From Callorhinchus milii (lineage: Eukaryota): a stretch of DNA of 64,000 nucleotides. The notes beneath the pieces were generated by a model, which was not told where the DNA came from, did no database searches, and worked only from the letters and a program-made list of their open reading frames with translations. The stretch covers positions 30,630,001-30,694,000 of the forward strand of contig NW_024704742.1 in the NCBI RefSeq assembly GCF_018977255.1, given 5' to 3'. Position 1 is the first letter of the stretch. The number at the start of each line of letters is the position of its first letter. The position numbers and the translations under genes were made by a program. Shown in pieces: positions 12,430-47,600 of the stretch.

Positions 12430-13520
12430 ACTGCTTAGGAAGCTTGTAAAAAACTAGGATGCATGGGATTAATGGAAAGGTAGCAATGATATCTTAACTA
12501 CCAGAAAGGTAGGTAACGGATAGAACGTCGGTTAAAGGATAGGAAACATAGGCTGGAAGTACAATCTTGTTATTCACAATAGAGAGATGTAATTAGTGGT
12601 GTCGTACAGGGGTCAGTGTTAGGACCCTACTTTTCTCCATTTGTATAAATGATCTGGATTCTGGTATAAGGGGTATAATTTCTAAGGTTGCAGATCACAT
12701 GAAAATAGGGAGTGTAGCTAACAATAAAGAAGATTGTAAGAACTTCAGCTGGACAAACTATCAAACAGTTAATAGAATCTTATAGAATCTTCGTGGAGTC
12801 CTGTAGCTCAGTGGTTAGAGCACTCGCTTTGCAAGTGAGAGACCTGAGTTGAATTCCAGGCAGAGGGTGAAACCTTGGGCAAGTTTCCTTACTCCACACA
12901 GAGCCTAATAATAATCCCTCCAAAACAAAACAATAACAAATTGGTCATTTTCAATCTACGACTGTTTGTGGGACATTGCTGTGCGCAATTGGCTGCCGCG
13001 TTCGCCCACAAATATACAGTCAATTCACTTTACAGTGTGTTCTGTGAAGCGCTTTGGGACATCCTCCCGACGTGAAAAGCGCTATATCAAATGCAAGGAT
13101 TATTATTATTATTATTATAGATACGGATATAGAATCTAAAAGCAAAGAGATAATGCTAAACTTATATAAATCGTTAATCAGACAACAGTTGAGTCTAGTA
13201 TTGGTCACCCCACTTTAGGAAAGACATCAAGGTGATAGAGGGGGTGTAGTGGAGATTTACTCGGATATTACCGGGGTGAGTAGTTTGGCCTATGAGTGGA
13301 GACTGGAAAAACAGAGACTTCTTCCACTGGAACAAAGAAGATTGAGGGATGACCTGATAGAGGTCTTTAAAATTTTGAATTTTTATGTAGTCAAAAACAA
13401 ATATGCCCTTCAGGCTCTATAGTCAATAGGAGAAATTCTTTCCACTCATCAGTAAGTCAGTAATTAGAGAGCATCAATTTTAGATAGTTAGTAAATGAGT
13501 TAATGGGGAGGTTAGATTTG
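12430..13520 (+). mobile_element. CR1 LINE RT fragment split by a SINE
   Basis: agtggtgtcgtacaggggtcagtgttaggaccc (GVxQGSVLGP) and a decayed FADD motif; continues after 13118 with tggtcaccccactttaggaaagac. Confidence 0.85.
12793..13117 (+). mobile_element. Young full-length SINE (short form)
   Basis: tRNA-Ala(TGC)-like head, ccttgggcaagt CORE-like piece, Deu-type 3' body and (TTA)n tail; near-identical to 63354-63667. Confidence 0.95.
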
Positions 13521-14682
13521 TCATTTGAAATCTTTCATGGGGATGGACAGAGGAGCCTAGATACAAGGTTAATCAAATTCACTTGTATAGTATGAATTTG
13601 TGACTAGCATAGTGTGACATGCTTCAGTGGTTGTGATTAGAGCTGCACCGTCATGTTTGAAGAAAAGGTTCAGTGATTAATATGCTAACGCTCAATACCA
13701 CAAAGGGGATTTAACTTCTTTGCTAATAATCTCATGTTTTTGGATATTGCACTGACTTCTAAAATAAACGATCATCATAAGTTTCAACCCTTTGACCGAT
13801 GCTTTCTTGGACTTACAGCCTAGGCTACCACATTTTTGGCTTATCCATTTGCATTTGCTTTACTAATCTGAGAATTTCGCAAATAGTAAAAAAAAAGCTG
13901 TACTGACTTATCACGTCAAAACATCTCAAAGCTCTTTGAACAATGTCGCAGGATCTTGAACGGCCACCTGAAGACAGCCTGAAGGGCATATTTGTTTAAA
14001 GTTTTATTAGAAAGACAGCACCTCGAGTAACATAGCATTCCCCTCTCCCTCCCACCCATTCCGCACTAAAGTTTCAGCCTGGGCTATTACCTCAAATCAC
14101 TCCATAATAATAATAATCCTTGCATTTGATATAGCACCTTCTCAGAGATATCTCAAAGCGCTTCATATATTGTAAAGTGAATTGACTGTATATTTTGTGG
14201 ACGAAACTCCATGGTCTGGAACGCACAACTTCCTGAAGCAACCACCTGAACAGATGGTCCCCTGATTTAACATCTCATGCGAAGAATCGGACCACCAATA
14301 ATGCAGCCCCCCACTCCCAGCACTGTGTTGGAATGACAACCTAGACTGTGAGCTCAAAGTCCGTATATAGGACTCGAAACCACAACCTTTGGACTCCTAG
14401 GCAAGACCCCTGAGGCAGGCTGACACCCTATGATTTGAGAAATAGCACTGCAGCAAGGGAAGTTTCAGAATGCACAGACACTACAGCTGTGGGAACAATT
14501 TAGCAAATTCAGGTTTCAAAAAATCAAATAGGTGCATTTTGTTTTATAACTGATAAACATTCACATCAGGGAAAATCAGTAAAACAAAATAGCCTTAATG
14601 GTCCTTCAATATTAGGACCTCCCCCTATCTAAAGATCCTTCTCTTACACTCCCATTCCCAGCTGAAGATCAGAGAAACTCAC

Positions 14683-14688
14683 TGCGGG
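14683..14688 (-). CDS. Candidate 6-nt microexon CCCGCA
   Basis: CCCCTGCCCAG|CCCGCA|GTGAGT, with an 88-nt AG-free pyrimidine-rich tract, TACTGAT branch point, and UGC just before the acceptor. Confidence 0.5.
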
Positions 14689-17399
14689 CTGGGCAGGGGG
14701 AAGGTATGAAATTCAGAGCAAAACAGAACATTGCACAGAACAAACAGAACAATCAGTATTTAGGTGAAAGTATGCAACCTGCTACAACACACTGGGGAGC
14801 TTAATCAAAATAAAAAAATCACAGCAGCACAGTTTAGAAAGCCATCTCATCCGATTCAGTGTGTAACACATGAATAAGGCTGTTTCTTCCTGTGCAAAAT
14901 ATATTTCCTTTTGAACATAAGGTCAATAGGGGGGGAAGGGATTCTTCCCATTCACGTCAAGCTCACCCTGTGAACCATAAAAGAAAGCAGCGGGAGGCTT
15001 GTCAGACAATGGTCACATTGGCAAACCATGCGGCTGTGGCTTTTAAATTCCAGCAGAACCCCAACTCTACGGGACCCCGGAGAGCTCTTAATGATCTGCG
15101 CATAAAACTCTCCGGGAGCAGGGGGCAGCCCTTCGGAACGAGAGGAGCATAAGTAGATATAAGCAAGCATTAAACAGCATTGTAAACAAAGGGCATTTTC
15201 CATGCAGATGTGATTTGGATACCCTGAAGCACGGTGATAGGTTTGTGTAAGACACCTGGCTAAACCCCAAAAATGTAACCAAGAGGTTTCAATTAATTTT
15301 GAACTGTTATAGTGAAGACTTTGACATGATATTCATGCGACAGGACCACTAACGTAACCAAGATGCAAGGAAAATAAAGATATTCATTTTCTGCCATATA
15401 TTAAGATGTGGGTAGAGATAACTGGTATTTGCAATATATTTTAGCAATTTTAGGACAACTTTGTAGGACTACCGGCAGAGAGCGGAGGGGTGGGATTGAT
15501 TTGGGTAGCTCTTTTTAAAGCGCCAGCACAGACATGATGGGCTGAATGGCCTCCTTCTGTGCTGTATAATTCTATAATTCTATGATGTTACATGGAGTAG
15601 AAGATTTTGTCTTGATTTAAGGTGTACTCAGAATGAAACAGTACATTCTCAGCTTTAGTGCCAAACACTGTGTCAAGACAGATTATTTAAAGGACAAAAA
15701 AAAGCAGCGCAAAATAACATGCAGAGAACGAGTATTTGTATTTGTGAAAACAATTAATTTACCGTGTTGTAATTTAAATCTCAGCCACAGCGAAAGTCGA
15801 GAGAAATAATTTCTCACTGCGGTAAATTGATCTAACACTAAAAGCAGATTTCTGTTTCAATAAACAGCAATGACTGAAGAGACATCCTGGATAGTGTGCA
15901 GAAGGAATGAATTTATCAAATTGGCAGATTTTCTCTGAAAGCTGTTCATCATTTCTAAATATTAAAAAAAATACACCACCACATTCCTGTCTGCATTCAA
16001 TTAAATTGTGTCGGTGCCAACCATTGTAACGCTGACATTTCAAAGGAAGACTGCACAGCTTATCCTCTTTGGAAGTCCATAACCGAAGCAAGCAGAGGCT
16101 GGCTTTTGTTATTAATTTAAAAATCAGCAAAAAAATTGACACATACTATATAGTCCTACAGAATTCAATTCCTTAACAATTAAAATACAATGTTTCTTCT
16201 ACCTGGAAGTGGGAAGAACAAGACCGACCCTCGAAGTAAAAAAGTTTGGAGCTATGAGAAACGTAGAGAAGCTTTAATCTCAACAGCCCAGAGAGAAGGC
16301 AGCTGAAGTGAACCTCACTGAGATATATAAATATTACATGCTGCAGAGTAAACGAAAAATGTTGCTTCCGTCAATACTGGGAAAATAGGACATGAATTAC
16401 AAGTAGTGATGATCGGTTTTAAAACAAATGGTAAGGCTTTTTTACTCAGTGATCAGTACAGTCAGACACTATTAGACAGCACAGATCCATTTATATATCG
16501 CAAGATCAGTTCAGAAGAAGGCCCTTCAGCCCATCTGAACTCATTCCTCCAGAACACCCACCCTGACATTCTCCCATCACAACATAGAGATGCTTTTTAA
16601 ATGAGTCCTAGTGTCTTGGGCTCAACCACCCTTCCTGGCAACCTGCTCCTGTCAGCCCTCAGCTTGGGTGAACAGTGGACCCGCACTTTAATGGAACATG
16701 ACCTTGTTAGAACACGGCATCTCGTTTTATGACCCAAAACATCACATTATATTGAGGTTGGATTGCACTTGGAACAATCTGCCAGATGAGGCAGAGTAGC
16801 AATGCTCAAAATGGAGCTAGACCTTCAGGCTCTTCTCACCCTTGACTTCTATTGTGGTCTTGTGAGATGGACCGCTAAATAAATCAGGAAGTTCCTTTGA
16901 GCTCCTGCTCCCGGTGAGGTCGAAGAGATAAATTATAAGATGGTAGTTAAAGAGAGATAAAGAAGGAAATTTAGACGCAGCGAGTTCCAGAATTTAGGGG
17001 CATAATGACTGATGGTGGTGTGGAGGGGATAAGCCAAATGGGCATACAGTGGGCTGTGTTAGCTAACCAGAGAATGCACTGGGAACTAAAGTTCAAGGGA
17101 GTTACACACAAGGTGCTGCATACATTCAAGAATAGGAGAAACATGGATGGGATGGAAGCTGCAAGAGAGAAATCGAAAGAGACCTAGGGATATTCTTTGA
17201 ATCGTCACTCACTATGTCCAAATCGTGTGAAGCAGCAATAAACAAAGCATACAAGACAAAAACATAGGAACAGGGAAAGGCGATTCAGTCCTCTAAGTCT
17301 CTTCTTCTAGTTTATTAGATCGTAGTAGATCTTTCAATTCCTCATCTTTTCTTCTTACAAATCTGGGATTTATATTAGGTTAATTTTATGAGTTACAAA

Positions 17400-17945
17400 A
17401 ACAACAACAACAAAATGACATTTACAGAGCGGCTTTCACTTCGGGAGGACGTCCCAAAGTGCTGAACAGTCAGGTGTCGGGGCCCGAGCATGGGAGGGGG
17501 AGGGGTGGTGGAGGGGTGAGGGAAGGCAGAGAGGTGGGAGGAGGACCAAAGGCACAGTCGAAGAGAAAGGTCTTGAGACCGACGTTGAAGGAGGCAAGGG
17601 AGAAAGTGATGCGAAGGAACCGTGGGATGGAGTTCCAGAGTGTGGGGACAGAGAGGCTGAAAGCCCGGCCACCGATGGTAGGACGGGAGACATGGAGCAG
17701 GCCGCAGCCCGATGAACGGAGGGAGCGGGCAGGTTGGTAGGGAGTCAGCAGGCCAGAGAGGTAGGAGGGGGCATGGCCATGAGATGAGGACGAGGATCTT
17801 GAACTCGATCCTCTGGGGGATGGGGAGTCAATGGAGTCGGGTGAGGGTGGGAATGATGGGGTCACGGAGCCTGGAGCGTTGACTCTCTTGAGCGGAGAGT
17901 CAATGGAGCATGAGAGTACACAAGCTGCAGAGTTTTGGATGATCG
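17400..17945 (-). mobile_element. L2 LINE 3' fragment (family A)
   Basis: Reverse complement of the 10114-10874 type (GGRAFS..LKTFLF) with tail. Confidence 0.95.
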
Positions 17946-18074
17946 TTAATATGTATTTAGTTATTTAGTTAATATTTGTTTAAGCAATTACTATTTGTGG
18001 AAAAACATTCATACTGGAAAAACAATAGTAATCTTTGCATATGATGCAGTGTCTTATCACATCATCAAATGTTA

Positions 18075-19620
18075 TTTTTTTGGGGTCAGTCTGACACATG
18101 AGGAAACCCATCACCATGCATAAGAGTATCCAAACCAAGCAGAGATTTTCATGCATCCCACCTAGATATGGAAATCCCGGAGATAGATTGTTGGAATGGA
18201 ATGAGCACTCTCTCCCTGGAAGGACGATCCTGCTGACCTAATTCTGGAAAGTATTAGACACAGATTGGCAAGAACCAAGGCTTGGGAACCTCAAAGTGTG
18301 TGTCGGGGTACTGTTGGAGTCTAACCAGCTAAAACCTCATAGATTGCCATTAATATTGCTGTCCAGCAAGCTTTCTCTCTGCTTGTCCAGCTAGACCCAC
18401 CCTACCTGTTAGAGCTTTGGCTTGCAGGGTTAACAGGAGCTGAGTGGTATGATTCCCTGCCCCCAGTGTCTGGTGCATCCTTCCAGGTCCTGTTGATGAG
18501 CTAAGCTGGCTGTGCTGTCAACAGCAGTGCCCTGGAATACTGCAGACCCACCTGGCTCAGGAACCGGACTACCGAGAACGCCACAGAGGGCTGGCTCGAT
18601 TCTACCATTCCACTGCCAGTTCAGCTCCAAGAAGACCCTGCTTACCTCCCCACCAAGGAGTATAATCACTAGTTGGTCATCGACATCCGACAAGCATGGG
18701 TTGGAGCCCTCACTGGGGGGATGGTAGGTACAAGGAACTCCCTGCAAACTTCCCGGTGGGCAACGCACCTCAGCATGAAATTTACAGGACCTTTACAGGA
18801 CAACTTTGTGAAGTGCCAGCCACCTTGATGTTTTTGAGGTCCATGTCCAATGCAGCGTACCAGGTTTACTCAGCACCAGCTGCTTAATCCAGGTCGTCTT
18901 GCCAAGAGCCTTGTCAAATAGACGTGCCCGCTGCAAAGCCGATTCCTCCTTCAGGGTGCTTAGCAACAGGTCAGTGGAGACTGGAGCTCTCCCTCCCTGT
19001 AGCCGCTTTGCCACAAATCCACCTCACTGCTTGATCCTGGACTTTGCAGATGGGTTGGAGGAAGCCTCTCTGCTGCATCCCTAGGAACTTAGGTCCATAA
19101 AGGAGGACTATTTGCACACTGGTCTTGTTTGCCACAAGCTTGACCTGCGTTGGGACCTTGCTGTCCTTGAAGAGGGATGAGCATAACCAGAGTGCCCTTT
19201 GCCCCTTCTCAGCGCGATCCTTCAGGACAGTGTCCAGGGTGAAGTTGGTGTCCACCACGACCTCAAGGTACCGATAAGAGTCAACAATTGGGACTGATGC
19301 CCCTTGTATCTTCCAATCAATTCCCTCAAAGTTTTCCCTTGGGCCGTGAAGAACCATGATTCCGCACTTGGGGGCACCCACCATCATGTCCCACTGGTTG
19401 GCCCAGTGTTCAAGATGGCAGGTGCAGTGCAGAAGGTCCACAGGTGAGTCCACCAGCAGCACAATACCACCCTCAAACAGAAGTGCCGCAATCTTGTCAG
19501 AGGGGCCTGGAACACAAACACCAAGTCTTTCCCCTTCGATGCCATCCAACACGTCATTGATGAACACATCAAACAGGGTGGGTGACAATGGGCAGCCTTG
19601 CCTTACCCCCCTTTCCAGAA
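18075..19620 (-). mobile_element. 5'-truncated non-LTR retrotransposon of a non-CR1/L2 clade (RTE/RTEX-like), dead RT
   Basis: ORF 18971-19630 has RGVRQGCPLSPTLFDVFIND, catalytic FADD decayed to FEGG, KCGIM and YRYLE. The ~350-bp 3' region ends in an A-tail and recurs at 39183 and 62283. Confidence 0.85.
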
Positions 19621-19734
19621 GATATCTCAAAGCTCTTCATAGCATTCACTGAGAATTGCAATGACTGTATATTTGTAGATGAACGTGGCAACCAATTTGC
19701 GCACAGCAGTGTTCCTGAAAAAGAATATTCATTT

Positions 19735-20090
19735 TGTGTTCAAATCCATTCACTCCCTAGCACCTCCCTACCTCTCCGAACTCCTCACTCCTCAATCCAC
19801 CATCTGGCGCCTCCGCTCGACTGGCACCTGCCTCCTGCTCATCCCTCGCACCCTCCGCCCCACCATTGTTTGTCATGCTTTCAGCCACTACGCCCCAAAA
19901 CTCTGGAACACTCTCCTTCAATCCCTTCGCCTTGCCACCTCTCTCCCCTCTTTCAAGTCCTGCCTGAAAACGTTGCTTTGACCGTGCTTCTGGCCCCCTC
20001 CCACTGGCTCGGATTCAGGCTCCAACACTGTTAAGTGCTCTGAGACCCTACCCTGTGTGGAAGGCGCTATATAAGTGCAAGTTGTTGTTT
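19735..20090 (+). mobile_element. L2 LINE 3' fragment (family B)
   Basis: FKSIHSLAPPYL..AFSHYAPKLWN; tail gtgtggaaggcgctatataagtgcaagttgttg. Confidence 0.9.
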
Positions 20091-20167
20091 TTGGAGGCAC
20101 TCGCTAGTTCATGTTAAAGTCTATTCATTCTCTGATTTTAATTATCACCTTGAATGTGTTATGAAAT

Positions 20168-21019
20168 ACCAACAAGATTACATTTGTATAGCACCTTTCA
20201 CATTGGGAGGACGTCCCAAGGCACTGACATTGTACAGCATTTCAGACCCGAGCTGGGGTTGGGGGGATAAGGGAGGGGAGGGGAAGGGGGGTGGCTAATG
20301 GCATGGTCGAAGAGGAGGGTCTTTAGGCGGGACTTGAAGGAGGCTAAGGAGGGGGCGAGGTGGAGTGACTGGGGGATGGAATTCCAGAGATTGGGGGCAG
20401 AGTGGCTGAAAGCTCTCCCGCCAATGGTGGGGCGGGTGGGTCGGGGGACGTGAAGCAGGCCAGAGCCAGCTAAGCAGAGGAAAGGGAACCAACAACAACA
20501 ACAAATTTACATTTGTATAGTGCCTTTCACATTGGGAAGATGTCCCAAGGCGCTGGACAAACAAGAGTTCGGACCCGAGCTGAGGGTCGGGGAGGATGGA
20601 AATGCTTGATACAAACCAAATGGGGAGAGCACGTTCCTAGACTAATAGCCTATTTGTATTGTGTCACAAATTGGCATTTATTACAGATCAATCACAGGAA
20701 CCAAGCAAGTGTAAATACAACACAAAATTACATTTGTTAAGCGCCTTTCAAATTGGGAGGACTTCCCAAGGCACTGAATAGTCAGGGAATAGGACCCCAG
20801 CTGGGAGTGGGTGGGGGGTGTTGGGGTCAGGGAGTGTGGAGGGCAGAGAGAGTAGGAGGGTGGCTGAAGGTATGGTCGAAGAGGAGAGTCTTGAGGCCGG
20901 CCTTGATGAAGGCAAGGGAGTGAGTAAGGCGAAGGGAATGTGGGATGGAGTTCCAAAGGGTGGGTGCAGAGAGGCTGAAGGCCCAACCGCTGATGATGGG
21001 GCAGGCTGGCTGGGGGACA
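20168..21019 (-). mobile_element. Three short L2 family-A 3' fragments (~20168-20487, 20488-20600, 20715-21019)
   Basis: Each begins with caacaa..ttacatttg..cctttca..ttggga tail in reverse orientation. Confidence 0.85.
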
Positions 21020-21154
21020 CCTAAATACTGATTGTTCTGTTCAACATAAATATATTGTAGTGGGAAGTTACCCACTCCACTTGCCATCTCAGAGTACAAT
21101 CTTCTACCTCTTTCCCCATTGATATTTGTCTGGCGCTGCAAAGCAGGCATTGAC

Positions 21155-22389: not shown

Positions 22390-23170
22390 CAACAACAGCA
22401 ACTTGCACTTACATAGCACCCTCCAAGCAGGATAGCATCTCAAAGCATTTAACAGTGGCAGATCCCAACTCCGAGCCTGGGGGAGGGGGAAGGGACCGTA
22501 AGCATGGTTGAAGAGAAAAGTTTTTTGGTGGGTCTTGAAAGAGAGGAGAGAGGGGCCAAGGCAGAGCGATTGAGGGAGAGTGTTCCAGAGTTTTGGGGTG
22601 TAGTGGCTGAAAGCGCGACCTCTGATGGTGGGGCAGAGGGTGTGAGGGACGAGCAGGAGGCCGGTACCAGTTGAGCGGAGGAGCCGAGTGGTGGATTGGG
22701 GAGTGAGGGGGTTGGGGAGGTAGGGAGGTACCAGGGAGTGAATGGATTTGAACACGAGTGTGAGGATCTTGAAGTCGATCCGGTCGGTAATGGGGAGCCA
22801 GTGGAGCCTGGCCAGAACTGGTGAGATGTGGGTACAGAATTTGGTCCGGGTCAGTATGCGGGTGGCAGAGTTTTGAATGAGCTGGATCTTGCGAATGGTG
22901 GAGCTGGGGAGACCAGCGAGGAGTGCGTTGGAATAATCCAAGCGGGAGGTGACAAAAAAGTGACAAAAAGGTGATCGAGGGTTTCGGCTGCATTTGGGGT
23001 AAGGTACTGTCGGAGGCGAGCAATGTGGCAGAGGTGGAAGAAGGCAGTCCTGGTCAGGAACTGGAATGTGGGGGAGGAAGGACAGCTGGGGGTCGAACTG
23101 GATGCCTAGGTTGCACACTGGTTTGGTAAGTCTGAGCGAGAGCCCAGGGAGGTTGAATAGTTCAGATCTG
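22390..23170 (-). mobile_element. L2 LINE 3' fragment (family B)
   Basis: NLGIQFDPQLSF..SRLDYSNALLAGLP..LHWLPI motifs and tail. Confidence 0.95.
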
Positions 23171-23239: not shown

Positions 23240-23376
23240 TCCACTGTCACTTATTGTCCAATTTGATGCACAAGGTGGTCACTTGGAACTAAGTATCAAG
23301 AGTGCTGCAAGTGCTCTTGATACTTAATCCCAAGTGACCACCTCGTGCATCAAATTGGACAGTAAGTGACAGTGGA
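23240..23376. repeat. 137-bp palindrome (63-bp arms, 4 mismatches, 11-nt spacer)
   Basis: 23240-23302 is the reverse complement of 23314-23376 at 59/63 positions. Confidence 0.95.
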
Positions 23377-26334: not shown

Positions 26335-26772
26335 ACTCAGAGACTAGAGGAACTGGGATTTTTTCCTCTGGAACAAAGAAAGTTGAGCAGTGACCTGAGA
26401 GAAGTCTTTAAAATTATGAGGGTTTTTTTGAAAGAGTCACTAGGGAGAAATTATTTCTACTGGTGAGTCACTGACTGGAGGGCATCAATTTAAGCTAGTG
26501 AACAAACAAGCAAATGGGGTGTTTAGGAGAATTTGTTTCACATGCAGAATGGTTAGGATATGGTAAGTCCTACTGGGGGGAGTGGTTGAGGCAGAGTCCA
26601 TATTAGTTGTGAAAAGGGAACTAGATAGATATCTAAAAAAAAGGGGTAAACTCCAGGGTTATGGGGAATGCGCGGGTAAATGGGACTGAAAGTATTGCTC
26701 TTTAAAAGAGCCAGCGTAGACATGATGGGCCGAATGGCCTTCTTCTGTGGTCTTTAATTTTTTATGGTTCTA
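26335..26772 (+). mobile_element. CR1 LINE 3' end
   Basis: RLEELGFFPLEQRKLSSDLREVFKIM and the CR1 3' hairpin gatgggccgaatggccttcttctgtg. Confidence 0.9.
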
Positions 26773-37007: not shown

Positions 37008-37028
37008 CTTCTAACTTTATCTTCTTGG
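37008..37028 (-). CDS. Candidate 21-nt microexon CCAAGAAGATAAAGTTAGAAG (xKKIKLEx or QEDKVR)
   Basis: 65-nt AG-free U-rich tract, AACTTGCGTCAG acceptor with UGC, purine-rich exon and AAG|GTGAAC donor; frame-preserving. Confidence 0.6.
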
Positions 37029-44608: not shown

Positions 44609-47600
44609 TGTATATAATGAGGCGTCTGGCATTGACTGAGAACATATTTAGTTGATGCCTGCAACTGTTTCCCTAATTTCCTAAAGTATGTCTTGAGATT
44701 GGATAAGAATTACAATGCCTTTATGAGGTACCATAGCCAAAGATTTATATAAATTGACTGTGCAGCACAATTCATTTTCTTTAATAAAAGATTCTGTGCA
44801 ATTTTGATGGAGATTTATAGCTCTGCTTTCTAAAAGCAAATTTTCCCATTTTTTCATCTGCTGGTTCAAGGTTGTATAATCAGAGTATAAACCCTTGCTC
44901 AATGCTAGAGGATGAATTAAATTTCTATGAAATAGACCCATTAAAAATAATTCAGTGCAAGAAAAGCTCCAGCCAGGGGTGTAGTTCATGTAAATATGTC
45001 TACAAAAAAAGGTTTCTAATTTAAAGTTAGCAACAGGCTGTAAAAAATATTGGGTTTTCCTTACACTGTTCTCTATAAATAATAATCTTTTGCTTCAGAA
45101 TGAAAAAAACACTATTTTTTGGCCATCGGGACAGAAGTTCACCCACTGAGAGAAAGGGTGGGAGAAACTAGCTACAACAACAATGACAAAAATTTGTACA
45201 GCACCTTTCACATCGGGAGGACGTACACGACAATCCCTGCTGCTGTTGACTTCTCCTTTTTCTATTTAACATTTATATTATTATTATTATAAGACATTCA
45301 TTCAATAGTGTCATAATAATCCCTGAATTTGATATAGCGTCTTATCGCGCTGTTGAGACGTCTCAAAGTGCTTCACAGAATATACTGTTAAGTGAATTGA
45401 CTGTATATTTTGTGGGCGAAACTCAGCAGTCAATTGCTGCTAGGTCCCATAAACAGCATAGGTGAATGACCAATTAAGGAGGATTGTTGGCTAAGGCACT
45501 AGTAGAAACTCCCTTCTTTTTTTGAATAGCATCATAGAATCTTTGATGGCTACTTGAAGGACAGGTAATACAAGGCTTTAGTTTACATCCAAAGAATGGC
45601 AATGGAACACTCCCTTGTTACCACACCAGGTCATCAGCCTTGACTATGAGCTAAAGCCTCAATTTGGGACTTGAATCCACAGGCTTGTTAAAAGGGAAAC
45701 AATTGCACTTTAAGCAGTAGTTCCCCAAAAGAATCAATAGCTGAAAAATGACTGTAAAGTGTCTGATTGTTTACCAGTTATTCATTTATCAAAATATTAC
45801 TTTCTGCCTATTGGGAATATTGCACTTGTTGCTAAGCTGTTCACTTTACATAATGTTTGTTCATTACACAATGGGATGCACTGAGGGAGGGAGTATGAGG
45901 AGCAATGCTGTACATAGATGCACATAGTTCATGAAGATAATTAGATTTTAGCTTTTTAGTTGGTCTCTCGTGCTCATTTAATTTTCTGAACTGCAGAAGG
46001 ACAATAAAGGAAAAATTGTCTTTTCCAACAGAAACCATATGGGATGAGCAGAAGCGAGATCCCACTGCAGAGATTTGCATTCTGGCCTCCTCTCTGTTCT
46101 GACCTGTTACAGCAAAAGGTGAACAGCAACAGGTCACTTAATCTGCAATATGAATAATAATCCTTACATTTGATGCAATGCATTGCACATTGGAAGGATG
46201 TCTTAAAATGCTTCACGGATATACTGTTAAGTGGAATGACTAGGCAAATACAGTAGCTAATTTGCATACATAAATGTCCCAGTAACAGCCATGAAGTAAA
46301 TTTTATCTGGACTCATAATGTAATGTGGATGACAAACCTGGGAGGTGATAAATTGGCACTTTGTGTCCTGCTTTAAAATGGGGAGGTTACAAAAGGCAAG
46401 ACCTTAACACTGGCTTTGAAAAGAGGAAAAAAGTTACTTTGCAAACTCCATTTTTCCATCTGCCAAATTCCTTCCCAGCCTGATGTTTCCTGGCTGTACT
46501 GTTCGTTTCATTTTCTTCCCTTCCCTCTTGCTATGATTTTACCTTCACCAACATGCCTAGGCAGAAGGCATTTTAAAATCCCCTGTAAGTTCCATTCAAT
46601 TCTCCAAGTGGTGCAGCACTCAGACGATACTTGTTGCATGTTCAGATCCCAGTCTGTGTTAAATGAGTAGGGCCAGATCAGATTGACCTTGTGTGGCCCT
46701 GACACCAAAAACATTTGTGGGTCCCATTTTCATGTGCTCTATTTATAAGTAATGGGCTCAGTGGCAGATTGGTTCCCCAAAAGGCCTCAGGAATGTGAGG
46801 TAAAATTGGGGTGCCAATTCTTCGGTCCAATCACAGGGGGTACTCGGGAACCAATCACGGGGAATCTCAGAAAATTTCCCAATTTCACATATCGGCAGTA
46901 TAAGTCCGCAGCTAAATGTCCCCTTTGTGAGCGTGGGCCATTGGCCCCATTGTTAATCCGTGACTGTGAATGATCTGATCGTACCTTAGGGTACCTGCTA
47001 ACATGCTACAATTCGGCTCTGTACCCATTAGGCCATTAAGCGGACTACCTGAAAATAACTACAAGACAATATGAAAAAGTCAAACGGTTGTCACAAGATA
47101 TTGGGAAAAGTACTGACTTAGCACAGTAGAGCTACTCTTGCTCTTGTGTATTTAATTAAATTGTAATTGAAAATTGATTGGATTTCCTTGCAGAGAGAGT
47201 TTGTCAGTATTAAACCATGTACAAGAGGGCATGCAATGGCTTCCACAACAGCATGCTGTGTGCATAACCCAAAAAGGAAAGATAACTCAAATAGAAACTG
47301 CATGACTAGGGAAAACGAAAAGGGGGGAAAATAACTGTCCTGAGCCGCTGTGCCAGGAAATCAATTGGCAATCAGAAGAGAAGGAATATGCCATTCATGG
47401 CACTAATCTACATAATCTCTTGACCTTTAGGGTACTGAAGATGATTGGAGAGCTCATTTTTATTCAGGGCATGTTAATATGAAAGTCTTTCCTTTATTTT
47501 CAGCCTCCAGTCTATTGACTAGATGGAAGCCAGTCCTGGCTAGAGAAACTGGTATAATGAAATATTTGGTATCTGAAGACAGGAAATTCTTGATATTTGC

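Follow-up and report, generated by a model that had tools for sequence, protein, structure and literature searches.

The 24-nt sequence at positions 21018-21041 of the 64,000-nt window analyzed here (Callorhinchus milii, GCF_018977255.1, NW_024704742.1:30,630,001-30,694,000, forward strand) is the exact reverse complement of positions 14743-14766, and is probably a neutral DNA-copying scar made during the integration of an L2 retrotransposon fragment (probability of approximately 0.6). The most likely source of the copy is local templating of 5' extra nucleotides as the L2 inserted, a process akin to repair-mediated duplications. The features on which this reading is built are as follows.

14683-14688, minus strand: candidate 6-nt microexon with a CAG acceptor, a GTGAGT donor, an 88-nt AG-free zone and TGC directly before the AG
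14743-14766, minus strand: proximal arm and putative donor, unique intron sequence with the best branch-point motif, TACTGAT (A at 14753)
20712-20717, minus strand: 3' copy of the target-site duplication, adjoining the L2 tail
20718-21019, minus strand: 3' end of a 5'-truncated non-LTR retrotransposon with a TTG-type tail, 302 nt
21018-21041, minus strand: distal arm and putative inserted copy, of which 21020-21041 is non-L2, with an inner TAAATA at 21022-21027
21042-21046, minus strand: 5-nt filler that repeats the final 5 nt of the L2 tail (20718-20722)
21047-21052, minus strand: 5' copy of the preferred 6-nt target-site duplication, TAAATA, just past the 24-mer

The inverted match, whose arms are separated by 6251 nt, exceeds chance expectation. 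In 40 simulated sequences of 64 kb (order-3 Markov), the longest exact repeats that were not of low complexity measured 15 to 20 nt, and none reached 21 nt. An ungapped search allowing up to 7 mismatches returned only the two sites in the window. The preliminary description was correct that the inverted copy is exact and, within the window, that the 24-mer does not behave as a repeat; the match stops at both ends. In seven exact matches of at least 21 nt, one arm or both lie outside the repeat mask, and five of these have an arm in a repeat family. Both arms lie outside the mask in the two others, namely, the pair described above and 13395-13416/13976-13997, which served as an internal control. 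Rfam gave eight matches in the window, all of them tRNA-like SINE heads and none at either 24-nt arm.

That the 24-mer is a piece of an unrecognized dispersed repeat, a chance match or an assembly artifact is very unlikely. Repeats make up approximately 35% of the window, and among the 19 contig pieces listed none extends across the distal junction, both of which would favor such an origin. The simulations and the lack of a third copy in the window speak against it, as do the coherent duplication and microhomology at the junction. Read depth points the same way. Four read runs (X4 to X7) of 24 were compared with the window at 80% likeness, and in run X4 the bin holding the proximal arm (14585-14861) had a depth of 22.4 and was among the three lowest of 30 bins, with unique single sites at 10 to 12 and repeat bins at up to 1.6 million. 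Reads of two other organisms gave 0 and 3 short matching pieces at the same likeness. Repeats dominated the read comparison, and the absence of a difference at either arm (among 40 of 832 difference rows) and of a joint that skips the L2 (among 15 of 6692 joints) carries no weight.

The anatomy of the distal junction carries most of the argument for a scar of integration. The retrotransposon fragment is 68 to 75% identical to six same-type copies in the window, and a longer sister copy encodes the C-terminus of a fish LINE ORF2 (best hits, 41 to 46% identical). From its tail and these C-terminal features we take the element to belong to the L2 clade. The distal arm abuts its truncated 5' end, as had been proposed, and the shared positions 21018-21019 (1 to 2 nt) fit the L2 consensus as well as they fit the 24-mer, which constitutes a junction microhomology. 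Between the two copies of a 6-nt direct repeat lie, in order, 5 nt of filler, 22 nt of backward copy (the partner stretch of 14745-14766, 6.3 kb away), the 1 to 2 shared nt, the truncated L2 and its tail. If the hexamer at 21047-21052 is the true duplication, 27 non-LINE bases (21020-21046) separate it from the start of the L2, and 22 of the 27 match the proximal arm in inverted orientation, 6.25 kb away. A hexamer this close is expected by chance in approximately 0.7% of cases. Because this hexamer and the one at 20712-20717 enclose the L2, the 24-mer and the filler together, the copy most likely came with the L2.

The preliminary description had instead suggested, from a possible duplication taaatac near 20711, that 20 nt of the match were older than the L2. 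This heptamer is present, its exact place being 20712-20718, where the last C can equally be L2 tail; the third TAAATA at 21047-21052 had been overlooked, so that two candidate 5' copies (21047-21052 and 21022-21027) compete for one 3' copy. The greater age of the 20 nt is disfavored, since a 6-nt duplication that is no worse takes in the whole 24-mer and since the L2 would otherwise have had to insert precisely at a pre-existing scar and lengthen the match by 4 bases.

Most elements of this junction have counterparts among L2 elements of zebrafish. Approximately 40% of ZfL2-2 copies carry 5' extra nucleotides (PMC2666801), which are mostly copied from flanking DNA, while other junctions show 1 to 2 bp of microhomology (PMC4245944, PMC4760211); target duplications of the L2-clade ZfL2-1 range from 1 to 8 bp with a peak near 5 (PMC4245944, PMC2666801, PMC4760211). 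The Callorhinchus fragment shares with ZfL2-1 and ZfL2-2, so far as these texts describe them, the truncated 5' end, host-copied non-LINE bases at the junction, a microhomology of 1 to 2 nt and a short duplication, which at 6 nt lies close to the zebrafish peak. The template, in contrast, is not flanking DNA but lies 6.25 kb away and is inverted. Somatic templated insertions of human L1 are comparable in that the cDNA leaves its RNA and copies genomic DNA at integration, with templates of under 250 bp that typically lie within 15 bp of the site (bioRxiv 2024.08.27.596794), whereas the element here is an L2 and its putative donor is 6.25 kb distant.

Repair-mediated duplications (PMC2671141) copy DNA over a few kilobases; their junctions show microhomology, filler and, in some cases, a duplication, and the copied DNA has included splice sites. 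The inverted 24-mer resembles them as a short same-chromosome copy, kilobases from its source, of a kind that can be inverted and can carry splice signals, and the distal junction displays the breakpoint features of that class (1 to 2 nt of microhomology, 5 nt of filler and a 6-nt duplication). The definition of Pace et al. 2009 nevertheless requires at least 50 bp, a donor within 5 kb and a position inside a split element, and copies scarcely occur more than 5 kb from their donors; the copy described here measures 22 to 24 nt, has its donor 6.25 kb away and sits at the end of an element. It would work alike while falling outside the published limits, and this distance, which is also far for a templated insertion, counts against a scar of integration.

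In the mechanism that we propose, the truncated L2 cDNA would have paired through 1 to 2 nt at its free 3' end with intron DNA at 14765-14766, been lengthened by 22 nt on this donor, gained 5 more nt and then been joined to the 6-nt target overhang. The microhomology sits at the cDNA end, which argues for the plus DNA strand as the template and makes nascent RNA, a template that we considered, appear disfavored. More speculatively, since the donor holds the target-site hexamer (TATTTA on the plus strand at 14757-14762, inside the proximal arm), the overhang may have served to open the donor duplex, pulling the donor to the break. The presence of the target hexamer inside the copied piece has a probability of approximately 1.1% by chance, and weighs against the proposed scar unless the two are mechanistically linked.

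The coincidence with a branch point must also be accounted for. The A of TACTGAT lies inside the proximal arm, as had been claimed, and a donor drawn at random within 7 kb would reach into the 100-nt acceptor zone in approximately 0.9% of cases and cover the heptamer in 0.13%, which we count against a neutral scar. A constrained donor would, however, keep the match perfect for longer, so that the copy gets noticed; such donors are computed to be 3- to 100-fold enriched among surviving perfect 22-mers. Estimates of the divergence of the L2 range from 5 to 19%, the latter from the window consensus at non-CpG positions, and depending on the estimate an unchanged neutral 22-mer has a P of 0.33, 0.13 or 0.007. 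This too counts against neutrality, and a perfect copy beside a diverged L2 (P about 0.13) leaves a small chance of selection.

Across the window, local copies are not enriched at the 5' flanks of elements (4/66) relative to 3' flanks (7/72) or random stretches (39/600), which counts against a scar of integration, in a comparison blurred by unmasked repeats. An inverted pair at the 5' end of a SINE, 32571-32626/33672-33726 (56 nt, 80%), was not counted, because an old repeat family may account for it.

Only one further unique perfect match of at least 21 nt occurs in the window; it displays the same scar anatomy, and no splice signal was found near it, which supports a neutral copying origin for the pair at the L2 junction.

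13388-13426, plus strand: internal control scar, made up of 3 filler nt and a 22-nt stretch (13395-13416) that is the inverted copy of 13976-13997

Direct repeats of 7 nt (starting at 13388 and 13420) flank this copy and its filler, and comparison with a sister repeat copy at 26340-26526 identifies the whole as an insertion. The donor arm of this pair already varies, since run X4 and the window disagree at 13984. The control was rejected as a second case of a 5' junction, its inserted arm lying inside an old repeat between the direct repeats. Its arrangement fits the split-element pattern of repair-mediated duplications, yet it is shorter than the 50 bp stated there (PMC2671141).

The control also shows that such copies form in this window without an L2 junction, which counts against integration as the source of the distal arm and favors a stand-alone, neutral repair-mediated duplication separate in time from the L2. 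This alternative is unlikely, although it deserves more weight than the other rivals. The shared hexamer could have let a break end prime on the donor and copy 14 nt from it, the L2 entering the duplicated hexamer later; alternatively, a later break at the 5' end of an old L2 could have been patched with the copy. Priming on 6 nt of homology would explain the hexamers on either side of the 14-nt core, and a younger age would account for a perfect match beside a diverged L2. Two separate events would nevertheless have to hit the same few bases, which we roughly estimate from L2 density to occur on the order of 0.1 to 0.2%, and that the match runs on for 4 nt into the L2 junction has a probability of approximately 0.4% by chance unless it was again templated. 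The later-patch version, moreover, has to treat the hexamer at 21047-21052 as a coincidence of 0.7% probability.

A scar of L2 integration would be ordinary in kind, while widening the range of donors for templated 5' additions of L2 to some 6 kb. DNA copying would then produce short, perfect, inverted matches to splice signals, which would be noticed preferentially where the donor is constrained. If the pattern is general, the target-site hexamer in the donor would show how a distant donor becomes chosen during integration.

The putative exon that gives the proximal arm its interest is a good candidate by its sequence motifs. The A of TACTGAT lies 65 nt ahead of its AG, and the candidate displays the features of SRRM3/4-type microexons (bioRxiv 2024.09.17.613571): a length of 3 to 27 nt, in frame, a distant strong branch point, a pyrimidine tract, UGC before the AG and a good donor. 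A strict set of microexon motifs gave two hits in the window and none in 100 simulations, with criteria picked after the candidate had been seen. No flanking coding exon was found within the window, where Pfam over 12 frames gave a single hit, to a reverse transcriptase fragment, and no host-gene exon; papers and supplements yielded no match to a host gene, and searchable mouse and zebrafish microexon tables held no whole 6-nt entry equal to the candidate or to guessed variants of it.

Pairing of the two arms in RNA, over the best branch point of this candidate, is physically possible according to the computed energies. The duplex of the 24-nt arms is predicted at -36.3 kcal/mol (-40.3 with flanks) at an opening cost of approximately 3.9 plus 3.6, and the next-best partner in the window reaches only -19.9. 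It is conceivable, although quite improbable, that a neural microexon had its branch point copied backwards into its own intron by L2 integration and that this accidental 24-nt antisense now tunes inclusion. Whatever its origin, the distal copy would then be a cis antisense element kept perfect by selection, which we consider very doubtful; transcribed 6.3 kb ahead of the branch point, it would pair over TACTGAT, block SF1/U2 and lower inclusion of the 6-nt exon, which is no less remote a prospect. The preliminary description had left the choice between a templated insertion and such a gating duplex: the junction anatomy best supports the former, and the latter is improbable, energetically possible as it is. 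Besides the energy and the position of the duplex, the A-over-T excess on the plus strand (z = 4.0) fits a minus-strand transcript, and the older age estimates of the L2 make so perfect a match somewhat unlikely. One arm is, however, a lineage-specific insertion junction rather than conserved intron, and the match is without the mismatches, G-U pairs or compensatory changes that would hint at long coevolution. Equal or far stronger pairings are common in the same intron (-36.8 for the control pair and -208 to -409 for nearby L2-L2 pairs), and the exon is itself a candidate only. Were the duplex to gate the exon, a long-range RNA splicing structure would have been born in a single mutation, without stepwise coevolution of two arms. 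This one-step birth of a splicing switch could be a common route in L2-rich genomes, where constrained splice signals would be the donors that stay perfectly matched.

A literature search returned no paper combining long-range RNA structure, complementary regions, branch point and microexon, which is not proof of absence. Validated long-range pairs, such as that of DST (9.4 kb, -25; PMC8052449), cover a range of spread and energy that includes the pair described here, which also lies within the size limits for paired conserved complementary regions (PCCRs): 24 nt (at least 10), -36.3 kcal/mol (-15 or lower) and 6.25 kb (less than 10 kb). As in PCCRs and Alu pairs, inverted complementarity lies within an intron over less than 10 kb and could pair near a cassette exon. 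PCCRs, however, require both arms to be conserved among vertebrates, which is unlikely for an L2 insertion junction, and conserved complementary regions overlap branch points approximately 20% less often than random (PMC8052449), whereas the pair described here covers one. Alu pairs, for their part, form long repeat-repeat duplexes, in contrast to the short copy of a splice signal in this intron.

The repeats of the window, about 35% of its length, are TTG-tailed LINE 3' ends and tRNA-headed SINEs, and no ordinary coding exon was found in it. The forward strand shows an excess of A over T (z = 4.0), which is weakly compatible with a minus-strand gene. The elements considered are the following:

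14683-14688, minus strand: 6-nt candidate microexon. It has a GTGAGT donor, its AG is preceded by TGC, the AG-free zone spans 88 nt and TACTGAT stands 65 nt upstream.
14743-14766: proximal arm, the putative donor, lying over TACTGAT.
21018-21041: distal arm, the inverted copy.
20718-21019, minus strand: 5'-truncated LINE at the distal arm.

Judged from sequence, the 6-nt exon is plausible, and its features resemble those of SRRM3/4 microexons as far as these are described in bioRxiv 2024.09.17.613571. The strict microexon motif set, picked after 14683-14688 had been seen, gave two matches in the window versus none in 100 simulations. Comparison with the searchable mouse and zebrafish microexon tables revealed no identical 6-nt entry.

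The proximal and distal 24-mers are exact reverse complements spaced 6251 nt apart, with identity stopping abruptly at their ends, and no third copy with up to 7 mismatches was found in the 64-kb window. Across 40 simulated windows, exact repeats reached at most 15-20 nt, which indicates that the 24-nt match is not a chance product. In a mapping of whole-genome contigs the bin of the proximal arm had a depth of 22.4, one of the three lowest among 30 bins, where single unique sites had 10-12 and repeats up to 1.6 million; this low depth places the proximal arm outside any long multi-copy element. That the 24-mer is a repeat fragment, a chance match or an artefact is very unlikely. The feature is real and most probably belongs to a known class, that of locally templated insertions.

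In minus-strand orientation, the distal arm is organized as follows:

Unique flank, the hexamer (21052-21047; TAAATA on the forward strand), then 5 filler nt.
22 non-LINE nt, then 21019-21018 (1-2 nt common to the 24-mer and the LINE consensus).
LINE body with its tail end at 20718, the hexamer repeated (20717-20712), then unique flank.

We take the LINE to be an L2 from features of its tail and C-terminus; a longer sister copy has protein matches only to fish LINE ORF2 proteins, the best being 41-46% identical. Pieces of this LINE also occur in Callorhinchus milii records. The preliminary description paired the 3' hexamer with an inner copy at 21022-21027, so that 20 nt would predate the L2, and overlooked the outer hexamer that encloses everything. 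The chance of a hexamer inside the copied piece is 1.1% and that of one just outside is 0.7%; either pairing entails a coincidence of about 1%. The older-20-mer reading makes two further demands, an L2 landing at exactly that spot and a match extended by 4 nt, and we therefore prefer a single event that would have produced the distal arm, the L2 and the outer duplication.

We give a probability of about 0.62 to a templated insertion made during L2 integration. The truncated cDNA end would have paired over 1-2 nt at 14765-14766, been extended by copying 22 nt, and received 5 nt before joining to the target overhang. More speculatively, the common hexamer may have steered donor choice: the overhang would have opened the duplex, letting the cDNA prime on the strand so displaced. 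Available accounts of zebrafish L2 describe 5' extra nucleotides in about 40% of inserts (PMC2666801), largely copied from flanking DNA via annealing, with 1-2 bp of microhomology in others (PMC4245944, PMC4760211), and target duplications near 5 bp (PMC4245944). The templates of human L1 are described as typically at most 15 bp from the site (bioRxiv 2024.08.27.596794). Repair-mediated duplications, as described in PMC2671141, show microhomology, filler and sometimes duplication, include splice sites among the copied DNA, and have donors about 1.2 kb away on average and scarcely beyond 5 kb. The focal donor distance of 6.25 kb is long compared with both the zebrafish L2 extras and these duplications. 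Local copies occur at 4/66 element 5' flanks versus 7/72 3' flanks and 39/600 random places, unmasked repeats blurring all three, and this lack of 5'-flank enrichment counts against copying during L2 integration.

Besides the focal pair, the window contains a single unique exact match of at least 21 nt, the control pair 13395-13416/13976-13997. Compared with a sister copy of the repeat, the segment 13395-13416 is inserted sequence, flanked by 7-nt direct repeats and with 3 filler nt; the whole (13388-13426) is a 22-nt inverted templated insertion with a 7-nt target duplication inside an old repeat fragment, presumably CR1-like. No microexon-like site was found near this pair. One sequencing run, X4, differs from the window at 13984, within the control donor arm. 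The control pair is the same type of scar as the distal 24-mer and supports a neutral copying process, yet it has no LINE junction and thereby also strengthens the alternative that the focal copy arose in a separate repair event independent of the L2, which we regard as possible but rather unlikely.

The preliminary description also proposed an RNA duplex gating microexon inclusion. The 24-bp duplex of the arms (−36.3 kcal/mol; about 7.5 for opening both arms; next-best partner −19.9) is energetically able to form, and validated long-range RNA pairs extend to 9 kb (PMC8052449). However, the control pair (−36.8), a SINE-SINE 25-mer (−33.7) and nearby L2 pairs (−208 to −409 kcal/mol) pair comparably or more strongly, so the focal energy is ordinary for this window, and among conserved complementary regions branch-point overlap is about 20% below random (PMC8052449). 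The perfect copy beside a diverged L2 keeps the idea alive: the element is 19% from the window consensus, which overstates its age because two sister copies 91% alike are equally distant from that consensus, and the probability of an unchanged neutral 22-mer is 0.33, 0.13 or 0.007 when based on private, well-conserved-column or all differences, respectively. So do the low odds of a random donor covering the branch heptamer (0.13%) or the acceptor zone (0.9%), but survival bias toward constrained donors restores 3- to 100-fold of these odds, and readers preferentially pick out branch-point overlaps. A working splicing switch at the distal arm is, on balance, very unlikely.

Further microexon-like sites occur in the window. 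On the minus strand, the 21-nt site 37008-37028 has a 65-nt AG-free zone, TGC, a weaker donor (GTGAAC) and an upstream tract similar to that of the 6-nt candidate; two frames are open and the third has a stop. A third minus-strand site, of 15 nt (2515-2529; AG-free zone 72 nt, weak donor), may be noise, the loose pattern that finds it giving 0.74 chance matches per simulated window. It would be unusual for a 64-kb stretch of intron to carry three in-frame tiny exons. On the opposite, forward strand, the 24-nt site 46561-46584 meets the strict pattern, with an 80-nt AG-free zone and a GTAAGT donor.

Other duplications were also observed. The inverted duplication 41775-42014/42380-42591 (about 220 nt, more than 90% alike over most of its length) comprises an L2 tail and about 170 nt of unique flank, and encloses an L2 fragment. 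A unique 40-nt direct repeat (24780-24819/25080-25119; 92.5% alike, spacing 300 nt) is probably a further local copying scar, and a 56-nt inverted match (32571-32626/33672-33726; 80% alike), with one arm at a SINE 5' end, represents either an old templated addition or a repeat family that escaped masking. A hairpin at 23240-23376 (63-nt arms, 94% complementary, 11-nt loop) lies 70 nt outside the L2 of 22390-23169, on the side of its 5' end. Finally, 18971-19636 on the minus strand holds a 221-aa open frame whose product matches reverse transcriptase (PF00078, E 5e-9), in an element of a lower-copy non-LTR family (run X4 depth 2000-5000).
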